This document shows positions 4,511 to 59,926 of a stretch of 64,000 nt of DNA, piece after piece; within the stretch, counting starts at the first letter, position 1; each line of letters begins with the position of its first letter. The stretch spans positions 96,001 to 160,000 of the IMG/VR virus record IMGVR_UViG_3300042887_005324; one strand, given 5' to 3'. The notes under the pieces were generated by a model that saw nothing but the letters and a program-made list of their open reading frames with translations, had not been told where the DNA came from and searched no databases. Source of the DNA: a virus. The translations under genes and the position numbers were made by a program.

Positions 4511-4774
4511 TCAATTATCAAAATCCTTAGGAAAAAAATCTCCTAATCTATTCTTTTTGGACAAATCTAATATTTCGTCTATTTTATCATCCCTAAGTCT
4601 TGATTGATCCTCTAACCACATATGAAAGTAGATTTCGTGAAAATCATAGAAGTAATCTTCTAATAAACCATCATACCATAACATGAAAAAATCACTATAT
4701 TCTTTTTGTTCATCAAAGAATTCTTTTTTTGATATATCATCTAATATTTCTTGTTTGGTTTTTCTATTGTTCAT
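4511..4774 (-). CDS. hypothetical protein with RDxKIxxIL motif
   Basis: LRDDKIDEILD near C-terminus. Confidence 0.65.
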   Translation of the reverse strand: MNNRKTKQEILDDISKKEFFDEQKEYSDFFMLWYDGLLEDYFYDFHEIYFHMWLEDQSRLRDDKIDEILDLSKKNRLGDFFPKDFDN

Positions 4775-5111
4775 ATAATATCGACTTCAATTGTAAATCT
4801 CTTAATCTTTGTTTAATTATTGAATTATCTGTTGTATCTGAAATTACCTCAATAATTTGATTAACTCTAGTAATGAGTCCTTCTAAATTTGTAGTTCCTG
4901 GATCAGATGAGTATTTCGAGCCTTTCCAAATTAATTCAATTTTATTAAATTTGTCTGCTATATACCACATAGTAACATTGCTATAATTTAAATATTTTTT
5001 AGCTGACTCAAATTTGTCTCTAGCTGACTGATTAGTTAAACCATCAACATCAATATAAACTACAAAAATAGGGTTCTCTAAATCTAATTTTTCTTCAATC
5101 ATATAATTCAC
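4764..5111 (-). CDS. hypothetical protein with C-terminal RDxxLxxIL motif
   Basis: ends LRDLQLKSILYEQ. Confidence 0.65.
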   Translation of the reverse strand: MNYMIEEKLDLENPIFVVYIDVDGLTNQSARDKFESAKKYLNYSNVTMWYIADKFNKIELIWKGSKYSSDPGTTNLEGLITRVNQIIEVISDTTDNSIIKQRLRDLQLKSILYEQ

Positions 5112-5460
5112 TAATAATTAAATCTCTTTGAGATTCAATAGACAAATCATTTTCTTCATATTCTTCAACTACAATCTTTAGTATCTGAAAAGAATTTGTT
5201 TTTGATAAAACACTAACTCTAATTACATCAAAACTTATATCTAAAAATATTTCATTGTTTTTTAAATAAACATTTTTAAATGTGTTGTTATTAGTTTTAT
5301 AGTTAGCCAATTCAAAATCAGAAGGCACTTTTATCTTAAATGAGTGATAAGCTATATTAGACCACATATTATCATCTTTATATGGATTTAAGGGTCCAAT
5401 ATATTTAAAGTTTTGAAGTAGTTCAATTTTATCAGAATTCTCGAATTTTATCCAATTCAT
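5095..5460 (-). CDS. hypothetical protein with C-terminal RD motif
   Basis: ends QRDLIISELYD. Confidence 0.65.
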   Translation of the reverse strand: MNWIKFENSDKIELLQNFKYIGPLNPYKDDNMWSNIAYHSFKIKVPSDFELANYKTNNNTFKNVYLKNNEIFLDISFDVIRVSVLSKTNSFQILKIVVEEYEENDLSIESQRDLIISELYD

Positions 5461-5466
5461 TAGATT

Positions 5467-5895
5467 TTATTTATCAGAGTTAGACCAAAGTTTACAAAAA
5501 GGTGTAGTGAAGTAATCATTATATTGTAAAGTATCATCAATATGTAAATTAATATTTTCTCTTCTACAATAATCAGCTTTAGTTTTATCCCAAAGTTCAT
5601 CTTCAATCAAAGCAAATCCAAATTTTGGATGAAATCCCTTAGTCGGCGTACCTAATTGTTTATGATAATCTGTGATAGAAAATATCTTAGTATATTTAAT
5701 TTTATAAGTAGCCAATAATTCAAAGTCTTTATCAGATAAACCACCTGTAATTATATGAACCTCACCACCAGATTTGATTATTGAGTTTGATAAAAATGAA
5801 AAGAACTCTGGCATTGTATCAATAACACCATGAAAATCTAAACCTACTTTGTAAGTATTTTTACTCTCAAAGATTTTAGAAAATTTTCTTATCAT
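5467..5895 (-). CDS. HAD-superfamily phosphatase-like protein
   Basis: GLDFHGVID (variant motif I), IITG, K, HIDD. Confidence 0.65.
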   Translation of the reverse strand: MIRKFSKIFESKNTYKVGLDFHGVIDTMPEFFSFLSNSIIKSGGEVHIITGGLSDKDFELLATYKIKYTKIFSITDYHKQLGTPTKGFHPKFGFALIEDELWDKTKADYCRRENINLHIDDTLQYNDYFTTPFCKLWSNSDK

Positions 5896-5966
5896 TTATT
5901 ATATATTATTCAAATATAATAATTTTTTTTAATATATAGTTTAGTGGATAAAAATAAAAATACTAA

Positions 5967-6512
5967 ATGGAAAGAGAAATTTTAGAAAATTACTTAAATG
6001 GTGGATTATCAACAAATGATATTGTTAAGATAACGAATAAGTCACAAACAACCATAGTTTATTGGATGAAAAAACATGGATTAAAATCAAATTTTATTAA
6101 CTTCAAAGATCAAGGAGTAAAAGACTACGGTGAATATAGATTTTGCCCAAGATGTAAAAAGGAATGTAAAACATCAGATTTTTATAACAGAAGAGGAAAG
6201 GCCAATAGTTCAGTTTACTGTAAGAGCTGCACAAGTGACCAAACATTAGAAAGAATGAGGGCATTAAAGTTACAAATGGTTGAGTATAAAGGCGGTTCTT
6301 GTGTAAAATGTGGATATAATAGATACTTAGGTGCTTTAGAATTTCACCATCTTAATCCAGATGAAAAAGACTTTAACCCATCTCAACTAAAAAGATACAA
6401 ATTTGATGATAATGTAAAGTCAGAACTGGATAAATGTATATTAGTATGTTCAAACTGTCATAGAGAAACACACGATGAAATTAATAGAAATAAAAAAGAG
6501 ACTCAAGATTGA
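5967..6512 (+). CDS. HNH endonuclease with N-terminal HTH and Zn ribbon (free-standing homing endonuclease)
   Basis: CVKCGY...LEFHHLNP...CILVCSNCHRETH; CPRC/CKSC. Confidence 0.85.
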   Translation: MEREILENYLNGGLSTNDIVKITNKSQTTIVYWMKKHGLKSNFINFKDQGVKDYGEYRFCPRCKKECKTSDFYNRRGKANSSVYCKSCTSDQTLERMRALKLQMVEYKGGSCVKCGYNRYLGALEFHHLNPDEKDFNPSQLKRYKFDDNVKSELDKCILVCSNCHRETHDEINRNKKETQD

Positions 6513-57597: not shown

Positions 57598-57678
57598 TTT
57601 AGAGGATATATTTTTGTTTATATATTAATTATTTTAGTGTTCTCATTTATTATTTAGTAATGATAAAGAGATTTGAGA

Positions 57679-59559
57679 CTAAATAGACAAAATAGAACTG
57701 TTTGACAAAACATTAAAATTATACTCTACCTTTTTGTCAAATTCAAAAATATAATTTACAAATCCCTCATCATCACCAAATCTACTTTCAACAACTAATG
57801 GATTTAGAGGATTAGAATTATATGCCCAATCTTCTAAACCAAGTTCAACGAATCTATTTTTAATAGACTCATTATAGTGATTACTAATGGTTCGAACTCT
57901 TCTTTGTATATCTTTTCTTGTAAGATTTTGAGTATTAGAGTTGTGATAATATTGTAAGTACAACATCTTAGGTATTTTGACCATTTTTGTATGTAAAAAT
58001 GTACGAACAATCAGTTCATAGTCATCAACGATAGTAAGTCTTCTGTTGTGCCCACCAATAGATAAATAGAATGACTTTTCCCAAGCTCTAAAGTGATTTG
58101 GAACTCCTACAATATGTCTAATAGTTTTAGGGTTAATATTAGCACAATCTACTGAATTGTATTTTCTACCAGCATAGTATTCTTCTTTATATTTACCATA
58201 TCCAAATGAAAAGTTATCACCATAATTGAGTGAATTATGTTGCTCATCTATTTCAGCACAATTTGAATAAACAAATTTAGCGTCTGGATATTCTTTGAAT
58301 GCTTTTACCATTAGACTTAAAGCTTCTGGTAATAAAAAGTCATCGTGATCAAGTTCCATAATATACTTACCACGAGATAAAGTAGCTGCTCTATATTTTG
58401 ATTCACCAACAATACCTCCAGACTTTTTCTTAAATTCATACACACTAATTCTAGAATCTTTTTTAGACAACTCTTCAGCAATTCTTAAAGTTTTACCACC
58501 ATCGTTTGAATCATTGACTAATACCCACTCCCAATTTGTATAATTCTGACTTCTCATACTTTCATATGTTCTCAGTAATTTTTCACCAATGTTATAGATA
58601 GGAGTAAAAACACTGACAAGTGGAGTCTCATCATTTGATGAATTTAATATGTAATTCATTGCACAGAAATAAGAAGATTCACCAGTTTTCTCTTCTATCT
58701 CATTAAAGTGTAACCATCTACCTCTAACATCTAGGCAATGATGACTGAGTTTCGGAAAGTTAGCGAAACTATCAGAAACAGTAATAATCGAATCAGGATT
58801 AAAATCTTGAATTACATTATCGATATTTTCATCAGTCAATACCGATAGTGTATTGAGTTCGGTTGATTCATAATCGACTATAAACCTTGAGTTTAAATTT
58901 ACATCACTATTTGTACCAACTATAAGAATTCTTGGTAAAGAATTTAATTTTCTCTTTTCTATAAAGTTATAATAACAAAGGACTTTTTCTATAAAGAAAA
59001 AATCTTCATTATTCTCATTGTACAGTTTTTCAATAAAGTTACCGTCAGCAATATACTTCATTGGTTCTAATCTAGATTTTCCTATTAAATCTCTTCTTAA
59101 TAGAAATTGAGCCATATCTATATGTTGAACTCTGGTATTTTCCGGTTTTGCTTCTCTTATATCAAGTCCTGTGAAATCTTTACCTCCAATCTTTTGACTA
59201 AAAATAAATCCTCTTTTTTCTGGATTTTTCTCAATAGATTGGTAAATAGTGTCATAAAAGTCTTCGTGAATTATATTATCATCGTCTAAAACATAAACAA
59301 ATCCTTCTTCAATTTGTTCTAAACAAGCATTGATCATTAAATGTCCATGATCACCAGGAACACTTTTAATGAATTTGATTATGACTTCCTTATTATATAA
59401 TTCAGTAAGTAAATCTGAATTTATATCACTAAGTGAATTTGTGTCAAATACAACAAACCAATTTATTTTGAATTTTTCAGACTTACTATAAATTGATTCT
59501 TTAACTTTTGATAGATTTTCGGGTCTTGAACATCTTGTGATAATGTTAATAATATTCAT
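57679..59559 (-). CDS. glycosyltransferase with two GT2 (GT-A) domains
   Basis: VLDDDN and ELDHDD motifs; VSVFTPIYN...LVNDS; DDYEL. Confidence 0.85.
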   Translation of the reverse strand: MNIINIITRCSRPENLSKVKESIYSKSEKFKINWFVVFDTNSLSDINSDLLTELYNKEVIIKFIKSVPGDHGHLMINACLEQIEEGFVYVLDDDNIIHEDFYDTIYQSIEKNPEKRGFIFSQKIGGKDFTGLDIREAKPENTRVQHIDMAQFLLRRDLIGKSRLEPMKYIADGNFIEKLYNENNEDFFFIEKVLCYYNFIEKRKLNSLPRILIVGTNSDVNLNSRFIVDYESTELNTLSVLTDENIDNVIQDFNPDSIITVSDSFANFPKLSHHCLDVRGRWLHFNEIEEKTGESSYFCAMNYILNSSNDETPLVSVFTPIYNIGEKLLRTYESMRSQNYTNWEWVLVNDSNDGGKTLRIAEELSKKDSRISVYEFKKKSGGIVGESKYRAATLSRGKYIMELDHDDFLLPEALSLMVKAFKEYPDAKFVYSNCAEIDEQHNSLNYGDNFSFGYGKYKEEYYAGRKYNSVDCANINPKTIRHIVGVPNHFRAWEKSFYLSIGGHNRRLTIVDDYELIVRTFLHTKMVKIPKMLYLQYYHNSNTQNLTRKDIQRRVRTISNHYNESIKNRFVELGLEDWAYNSNPLNPLVVESRFGDDEGFVNYIFEFDKKVEYNFNVLSNSSILSI

Positions 59560-59619
59560 TATTATTTGATTACTTTTTTTTATTTTATACAAATTGACAT
59601 TGAATGTTGAATTTTATCT

Positions 59620-59627
59620 TATATTTG
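59620..59627 (+). promoter_or_regulatory. Bacteroidota-type -7 element
   Basis: TATATTTG 5 nt before ATG 59633. Confidence 0.6.
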
Positions 59628-59632
59628 TAATA

Positions 59633-59926
59633 ATGACAGATTTAGAAAAAATATTAGATTCCAATCCTCAACTCTATAGTATTTCAGATTCACTTATCTG
59701 TGAAATTTGTGAAGAAATATTTAAAATTAGATTAAATTATGACAAGACTTTTGTAGATAACGGAATGGACGAATTAGACTCTATTGGGCTAGTAATGCAA
59801 ATTGAAAAAAGATTGAACATTTCAATACCGGATGAAGTCATTGAACTGATATTCAATCTTGAAGAAAAACCTATTAGATTTACTCAAATTATTAGAAATA
59901 AAAAAATAGAAAATTTAGGTATTTAA
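59633..59926 (+). CDS. acyl carrier protein-like, lacking the canonical phosphopantetheine Ser
   Basis: GMDELDSIGLVMQIEKRLNISIPDE vs ACP GxDSLDxxELVMxxExxFxIxIPDE; ends IRNKKIENLGI. Confidence 0.7.
   Translation: MTDLEKILDSNPQLYSISDSLICEICEEIFKIRLNYDKTFVDNGMDELDSIGLVMQIEKRLNISIPDEVIELIFNLEEKPIRFTQIIRNKKIENLGI

Follow-up and report, generated by a model that had tools for sequence, protein, structure and literature searches.

Why do about ten unrelated small proteins of one virus end in nearly the same nine residues? The question was raised by a window of 64,000 nucleotides, bases 96001–160000 of the 174,041-bp linear IMG/VR virus record IMGVR_UViG_3300042887_005324 (hereafter G000; 30% GC, 68% complete by CheckV), for which a preliminary description had proposed a shared C-terminal helix, hereafter the tag, docking diverse small proteins onto one hub. 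The ten C-terminal peptides listed there and the internal copy RNKKLIELG were all recovered from the sequence (Table 1). The tag is real, strongly supported, and apparently undescribed, and docking onto a single reader is the mechanism that we infer for it.

The strict form of the tag was defined as the nine-residue pattern R-[DN]-x-x-[IL]-x-x-[IL]-[ILGY] and was counted in the 172 proteins called on the whole G000 record. Of the twelve matches found, 10 ended no more than 3 residues before the stop codon, against 0.02 C-terminal matches expected from the amino-acid composition. Shuffling of whole proteins gave a mean of 0.03 and a maximum of 1 in 200 rounds, and shuffling of the last 30 residues, which kept the K/I/N-rich bias of the protein ends, gave a mean of 0.044 and a maximum of 2 in 2000 rounds. 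All nine related records (G001, G002, G003, G004, G005, G008, G009, G010, and G026) showed the excess as well, with 2 to 39 C-terminal tags per record compared with 0.05–0.43 in shuffles. When the ten genomes were pooled, 95 tags lay within 5 residues of the C-terminus against 0.86 expected (110-fold, Poisson P ~1e-155), whereas internal matches numbered 65 against 38.5 expected (1.7-fold). Therefore, the motif was special only at protein ends, and the frequency above shuffled and internal sequence on which the preliminary description depended was borne out in G000 and in its relatives. The weaker internal copy reported there, REISLSEVM (protein 45433–46170), was present and partly kept, as REISLKNLF, in a 33%-identical homologue from G005, but it stays doubtful as a tag copy because internal matches were near the chance level. 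In that protein, the stretch RRC-x-x-QE-x-REISL (residues ~155–165) was kept in the G005 homologue, and it may represent either a genuine internal copy or merely a conserved part of its own family.

A back-translated, stricter version (R-D-x-K-I-[DE]-x-h-[LF]-x-stop) was scanned against 2.9 million viral contigs of IMG/VR. It gave 54 matches, 45 of which ended open reading frames (ORFs) of at least 40 codons, mostly on contigs of 100–385 kb, while a control in which the order of these codons was scrambled matched 10 times, including 3 times in ORFs, and was 15-fold rarer at ORF ends. As a check for host mimicry, 301 Flavobacteriales genomes were scanned for the strict tag adjoining a stop codon, with the pattern fixed to AGR for Arg, Asp at +1, Lys at +3, and Ile at +4, and none contained it. 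The tag thus defined appears to be widespread among phages but phage-specific.

One rival explanation would need no protein function at all, the tag being a by-product of K/I/N-rich composition at gene ends or of a DNA or RNA signal at the 3' end of the gene, such as a translational coupling site or a terminator. The AT-rich genome and the overlap of several tagged genes with the next start codon are in keeping with it. However, the shuffles of the last 30 residues gave 0.04 matches against the 10 observed, and the scrambled DNA control was far rarer than the tag. The eleven tag-coding 27-mers were only 57% identical to one another on average, and seven codons (ATA, ATT, TTG, TTA, CTT, CTA, and CTC) were in use at the Ile/Leu positions. 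In G009, of 49.5% GC, the peptide was kept with CGG, CGT, AGG, and AGA as Arg codons. Because of this synonymous variation and the use of other Arg codons in G009, selection on the tag acts at the level of the peptide and not of the DNA, in agreement with the original statement that the motif was conserved as peptide while the DNA was not repeated. The shuffle, codon, and scrambled controls together bring the explanation without protein function already close to refutation, and we give it hardly any credence.

The anatomy of the tag was described from 60 instances; an example of a tag-bearing peptide is FKRDKKIDELLK. Position 0 was an invariant Arg, and position +1 was occupied by Asp, less often by Asn, and least often by Glu or Gln. 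Positions +3 and +5 were mostly Lys and mostly Asp, Glu, or Asn, respectively, and the hydrophobic positions were Ile or Leu at +4 and +7 and Leu, less often Ile, at +8. In half of the instances, Leu at +8 was followed by one polar residue (Lys, Asp, Glu, or Asn) and the stop codon, with a range of 0–5 residues. A variant end, [IL]-G-I-stop, recurred in the ACP-like protein of the window and in three proteins of G003. If the peptide forms a helix, the Arg and the residues at +4, +7, and +8 would share one face.

Table 1. Tagged proteins and further features of the analysed record. Positions are those of the window unless marked as genome positions; tags are given as their nine residues.
Feature	Position	Strand	Remarks
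RDDKIDEIL	4568..4594	-	87-aa protein 4511-4774; 18 residues after the tag, ending GDFFPKDFDN; G026 orthologue (69% identity) has RDEKIDELL and a GDFFPKDF end
RDLQLKSIL	4776..4802	-	115-aa protein 4764-5111; 3 residues to stop; pattern kept in G026 (RDLLLNSIL, 38% identity) and G002
RDLIISELY	5101..5127	-	121-aa protein 5095-5460; 1 residue to stop; G026 orthologue RDFIISDLI (45% identity)
RDRKINLIL	6848..6874	-	139-aa protein 6839-7258; 2 residues to stop
RNHLLNSLL	15039..15065	-	DUF6011 Zn-ribbon protein 15033-15527 (Pfam 2e-11); 1 residue to stop; G026 RDITINKIL
RDSNLNILL	28534..28560	+	164-aa protein 28072-28566; 1 residue to stop; directly 5' of the Rad50/gp46-like gene; G026 RENNLDELL (42% identity)
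RDNKIKNII	30565..30591	+	101-aa protein 30298-30603; 3 residues to stop
RDIKIKKLI	31020..31046	+	76-aa protein 30822-31052; 1 residue to stop; G005 orthologue (112 aa) ends RDLKLQKLID
RDLQIKELL	39648..39674	+	final nine residues of the 73-aa protein 39456-39677
RNKKIENLG(I), variant	59894..59920	+	end of the ACP-like protein 59594-59926; Pfam PP-binding 1.9e-6, residues 34-83 only
RNKKLIELG, internal	45261..45287	+	protein 44979-45446, after the L7/L12-CTD-like domain; 52 residues after the tag
J-domain protein (DnaJ domain and CXXCXGXG zinc-finger region)	31626..32366	+	Pfam; adjoins tagged genes; candidate reader only
N-terminal leader, examples	genome 17787-19187, 26672-27343, 31878-32369, 57091-57816

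The AlphaFold2 model of protein 6839–7258, built from 18 sequences, had a mean predicted local distance difference test (pLDDT) score of 90. The body scored above 90, and a confident helix (residues 117–129) ended at the Arg, while the tag itself (residues 130–139) was coil with a pLDDT of ~63 that fell below 50 at the end. Since the tag was a low-confidence coil beyond a confident body, it is not part of the fold of its carrier. The corresponding model of the protein with the L7/L12 C-terminal domain, from 3 sequences, had a pLDDT of 43 and was unusable. A Foldseek search of the 6839–7258 model against the PDB gave no match at E ≤ 0.001, and the ESM Atlas gave no usable match for the family of the protein at genome 54702–55115. 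These features bear on the possibility that the tail drives homo- or hetero-oligomerisation of the small proteins, so that no separate hub would exist. An amphipathic helix with complementary charges could serve this purpose, and small proteins often need oligomerisation. However, a nine-residue stretch is short for forming a stable bundle, AlphaFold2 left the tag unstructured, and a single fixed receptor accounts better for an invariant Arg amid the hydrophobic face together with an identical sequence across very different carriers and phages. Self-association is therefore regarded as highly improbable.

Nine of the window carriers held the tag 0–3 residues from the stop codon, and the tenth, 4511–4774, held it 18 residues away. 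An eleventh carrier, a mini copy of the capsid protein (genome 16685–17362), lay outside the window, as did a Gln variant, RQSKIERILK (genome 54702–55115). The tagged proteins had a median length of 110 residues and a maximum of 293, and they made up 11–16% of the proteins of up to 120 residues and 0% of those above 400. When the tail was removed, 60 carriers fell into 51 BLAST components. Pfam profiles matched DUF6011 twice and a HAD hydrolase, riboflavin kinase, DUF1281_C, PP-binding, and AAA_22 once each among 100 pooled carriers, ~90% of which had no match, and no Pfam-A profile covered the tail in 10 window, 10 G005, and 100 pooled carriers. The carriers are thus mostly unrelated, as had been suggested, with at least six Pfam folds among them. 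The further suggestion that no recognisable enzyme and no virion giant ends in the tag held for the enzymes of the window and for the virion giants, but not for the enzymes of the relatives, in which a HAD hydrolase, a riboflavin kinase, and an ATP-dependent ligase (the last from IMG/VR) were tagged.

The tag was conserved along family lines. In six window carriers with G026 orthologues (38–69% identity), the Arg and the residues at +4, +7, and +8 were kept in all, while the x positions changed, and 10 of the 11 tagged families found in at least two genomes were tagged in every member. A profile of the 54702–55115 family, searched against 1.84 billion representative proteins, gave 35 members, and all of the ~28 full-length ones, including the most distant, ended in R-x-x-x-[IL]-x-x-[IL]-[ILF]. 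Two families kept an internal tag, 18 (4511–4774) and 52 (the L7/L12 C-terminal domain protein) residues from the end. For the latter, a 40%-identical homologue, P0155, for which PF00542 is on record in Pfam, kept RNKKLIELGLG letter for letter. The tail was nevertheless absent in places. The orthologues of 6839–7258 (56–74% identity) were tagged except for P0022, which had lost the tag, and homologues at 30–41% identity were without the tail, as was the G005 orthologue of the DUF6011 carrier (59% identity), which stopped right after the Zn ribbon. These absences and the AlphaFold2 model support the claim that the tail is an add-on and not a piece of the carrier domain. Judged by these alignments, the conservation of the tag is typical of a short linear motif, and the tag is modular, gained, lost, and kept family by family.

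The explanation to which we lean, with modest confidence, is that the tag is a portable short linear motif, or address tag, that docks small carriers onto one conserved receptor. It would have been added to the ends of many small, rapidly evolving proteins outside the virion in a large clade of giant T4-like phages, and in the free protein it would be a floppy tail. On meeting its reader, the tail would fold into an amphipathic helix of about two turns, or into a short strand, with the Ile/Leu side chains at +4, +7, and +8 entering a hydrophobic groove and the invariant Arg pairing with an acidic residue. In this manner, dozens of different proteins could plug into the same conserved receptor. 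Because the tag was unchanged across phages of 27–50% GC, such a receptor must be a highly conserved phage or host protein.

Where the tag stands relative to the stop codon distinguishes docking from a pure degron, in which the tail, like ssrA, would limit the lifetime of early accessory proteins by being threaded directly into a Clp or Lon unfoldase. The tag is strongly C-terminal and sits on small accessory proteins, and a cognate protease is at hand in the form of phage ClpP across the clade, with a ClpC-like unfoldase in G005. However, 0–5 residues followed the tag, the last residue was mostly polar or charged (Lys, Asp, Glu, or Asn), and the two internal tags were strongly conserved. The variable end distance, the polar last residue, and the conserved internal copies argue against recognition anchored on the carboxylate, and a pure degron is considered unlikely. 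SspB-type adaptor tails (the ClpX-binding XB peptide) and ssrA degrons are C-terminal peptides that tether or deliver proteins to an AAA+ protease. ClpP is likewise encoded by the present phages, and G005 adds a ClpC-like unfoldase with an IGF loop, but the tag is unlike the LRVVK or LAA ends of these peptides and tolerates 0–5, 18, or 52 residues after it.

Within the docking explanation, the leading guess for the receptor, which we hold only tentatively, is the proteostasis machinery, in the form of a Clp protease plus its unfoldase or adaptor, or of a J-protein/DnaK pair. It is named as the leading candidate because genes for ClpP and J-domain proteins, and in some phages for DnaK or a ClpC-like unfoldase, are found in the clade, which is association only. 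The tag would then tether the carrier, plus whatever the carrier binds, to the proteostasis machine for remodelling or timed removal. The phage ClpP was recognised in G000 at 4e-56 and turned up in 7 of 28 related fragments. It is distinct from the prohead protease, because a gp21-like domain sits in a protein of ~700 residues upstream of the capsid gene. The ClpC-like unfoldase of G005 contained AAA_2 and ClpB_D2-small domains and a GIGF ClpP-docking loop. The J-domain protein had 858 database homologues, the best 120 of them at 62% identity or more, and held the same gene position beside tagged genes in G005. A single complex prediction of this protein with 6839–7258, made without controls, scored 0.00 and carries no weight in either direction. 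Profile searches for PDZ_2, PDZ_6, and the ClpX zinc finger gave no match, and a BRCT search gave the BRCT domain of the NAD-ligase and one weak match in G005, with no small BRCT protein. The hubs named in the preliminary description (a phage scaffold or compartment, a protease adaptor, or a host complex) are candidates only, and the evidence disfavours no more than the sliding clamp and a strictly carboxylate-anchored degron.

Several points weigh against docking and against this choice of receptor. The link to Clp or to DnaJ/DnaK was drawn from gene presence only, and neither ClpP nor the J protein is known to read such peptides. The ClpC-like unfoldase occurred in 1 of 28 records and was not found in G000, which is 68% complete, and some carriers were enzymes (HAD, flavokinase, and ligase) to which tethering to a protease would bring no obvious benefit. 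The pattern was also defined post hoc, on data already seen, which is a minor concern given the shuffle margins and the independent genomes.

A bolder extension, which we regard as a long shot, is a phage-wide targeting system with the tag as its handle, in which dozens of small "bait" proteins, each binding a different protein of host or phage, would deliver these targets to the phage proteostasis machine. The baits could be, for example, the copies of the L7/L12 C-terminal domain, the ACP, the capsid-protein core, and the Zn ribbons, and the machine could be the J-protein/DnaK pair or ClpP working with an unfoldase of host or phage origin. If true, the tagged proteins would constitute a natural adaptor library for selective protein remodelling or destruction during infection.

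Gene surroundings and a second peptide signal bear on whether the tail is instead a virion cargo signal, docking proteins in the procapsid or another part of the particle for packaging and injection. Encapsulin cargo peptides and the T4 capsid-targeting sequence are short terminal peptides that address unrelated cargo to an HK97-fold shell, and those of encapsulins are C-terminal and bind the shell. Two constant carriers were capsid-related or in the head module, namely 16685–17362 and the 54702–55115 family, which lay among genes with the N-terminal leader described below. However, most tagged genes sat among replication, tRNA, and metabolic genes. The clade also possesses a T4-like leader at the N-terminus, M-K-x-L-x-x-F-x-x-F...E, and a loose pattern placed it on ~13% of the proteins of the ten genomes, ClpP included. 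This leader was nearly exclusive of the tag, being present on 3 of 100 tagged and 217 of 1678 untagged proteins (Fisher p=0.0015). The T4 capsid-targeting signal is N-terminal and cleaved by the prohead protease, whereas the present tag is C-terminal and is unlike the G/S-rich consensus of encapsulins. A cargo function is accordingly judged quite unlikely. The expression timing of the tagged genes could not be inferred, because the T4 late-promoter word TATAAATA did not separate the gene classes.

The spacing of the tag raises the question of whether [DN]-x-x-[IL]-x-x-[IL]-[IL] is a PIP-like tail that tethers carriers to a phage sliding clamp, as gp43, gp33, and gp55 of T4 are tethered to gp45. 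The PIP box, Q-x-x-[ILM]-x-x-[FY]-[FY], has the same polar/aliphatic/double-hydrophobic spacing, and both motifs are often found at the extreme C-terminus with basic flanks. The tag, however, shows Asp or Asn where the PIP box has Gln and aliphatic residues where it has aromatic ones, and its invariant Arg lies one position upstream. One tagged ATP-dependent ligase in IMG/VR and several tagged genes flanking recombination genes would fit a clamp client. In T4, interchangeable C-terminal clamp-binding motifs occur on unrelated proteins, including the small gp33, as short peptides on flexible linkers that share one hub (PMC2988020). The T4 epitope is hydrophobic and acidic, whereas the present tag contains Arg and Lys and is amphipathic, and its dozens of carriers are mostly without a link to DNA. 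The T4-type tail, K-[IL]-E-F-L-F, was found in the clade on a separate conserved family of 132 residues, the DNA polymerase C-termini of G000, G001, G005, and G009 carried neither motif, and the sigma factor 61937–62548 ended in ...FDILENMYL. No gp45-type clamp (PF09116, PF02916) was detected in G000 or G005, where a divergent clamp could escape Pfam, and G005 gave only a weak clamp-loader-like match. A conserved protein of 230 residues adjoining the polymerase region matched nothing in Pfam, PHROGs, or a PDB profile search, and its identity as a clamp was unsupported. Since the T4-like IEFLF tail of the clade sits on a different protein, the clamp is very unlikely as the reader of the tag.

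The 132-residue protein (genome 48635–49033, L019:8635–9033), with orthologues in G001, G002, G005, and G009, ended in K-[IL]-E-F-L-F-[SND], an LDFLF-like end similar to the clamp-binding tails of T4, and may be a late-transcription co-activator of the gp33 kind or another clamp client.

In its residues, the tag appears to carry the defining features of none of the T4 clamp clients, the SspB/ssrA peptides, the PIP box, or the encapsulin peptides. The principle of a shared terminal peptide that docks unlike proteins on one hub is known, and no description of such a tag was found in the searchable literature. A few phage proteins are known to share a docking peptide, as in the T4 clamp tails, but such a peptide is not known as a proteome-wide label on 5–15% of the genes of a whole clade. 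If one receptor reads the tag, a pull-down with a 12-residue peptide would identify it, and a common pathway would be given to hundreds of "hypothetical" small phage proteins that are otherwise unannotated. The tag also provides a simple sequence rule for picking such genes in metagenomes, and, as a transferable handle, it could also steer other proteins to the same site in infected Bacteroidota.

G000 is a T4-like giant phage of a freshwater clade. The recognised genes encoded the major capsid protein, a split family-B DNA polymerase, UvsX, gp32, a Rad50/gp46-like ATPase, a sigma factor, GreA, SAM synthetase, a PALP enzyme, and the J-domain protein. Relatives of the capsid protein in IMG/VR numbered hundreds at 65–77% identity, many on contigs of 100–465 kb. 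G026 was the closest relative of the window, and G005 was a relative of 465 kb, 98% completeness, and 519 proteins. PHROGs added next to nothing for the proteins of the clade. The hosts are probably Bacteroidota, which fits the phage DnaK of G004 and G005, whose nearest match was the DnaK of Bacteroidota. A similar lineage of large aquatic phages carries DnaJ, DnaK, and ClpA and has predicted Flavobacteriia hosts (PMC12619734, 2025). The word "C-terminal" is absent from that paper.

Several genes of the clade were found in pieces. The ClpC-like unfoldase of G005 was encoded in two parts, 169694–171184 (+) and 120909–122102 (-), 50 kb apart and on opposite strands. The N-terminal piece ended in ...GPTGVGK followed by a 31-residue stub starting with Cys, and the first ~130 residues of the C-terminal piece were intein-like and ran up to SHN|T, which lies inside the Walker A motif. 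The layout resembles that of a split intein, with trans-splicing. The DnaB-like helicase of G000 (L018:16063–19151, genome 36063–39151) consisted of ORFs of 239 and 385 residues split by an endonuclease-like ORF of 393 residues, and the opening segment of its second piece shared 39% identity with the intein-like beginning of the Clp piece from G005. Inserted ORFs also divided ribonucleotide reductase and the family-B DNA polymerase (L019:208–4075 and L018:5014–10868), which were whole in relatives.

In four relatives, a small, very acidic protein with the conserved C-terminus L-E-S-F-x-x-F-x-K-x-R-K adjoined ClpP (L191:2228–2530, L192:2908–3216, L193:2251–2589, and L194:884–1300), and it is possibly a ClpP-associated factor. 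In the tagged protein 4511–4774, the tag was followed (4511–4567) by a second conserved end, LGDFFPKDF, which resembled the acidic/aromatic tail of the phage's own gp32 (…EDEDDFFGDF, genome 170898–171860), and this protein may carry two docking peptides that bridge two partners. The window further encoded a GreA/GreB-type transcript cleavage factor (7660–8130), SAM synthetase (2508–3773), a YqeY-like protein (3829–4281), a PLP-dependent, cysteine synthase-like enzyme (9202–10071), and dephospho-CoA kinase (44065–44682).

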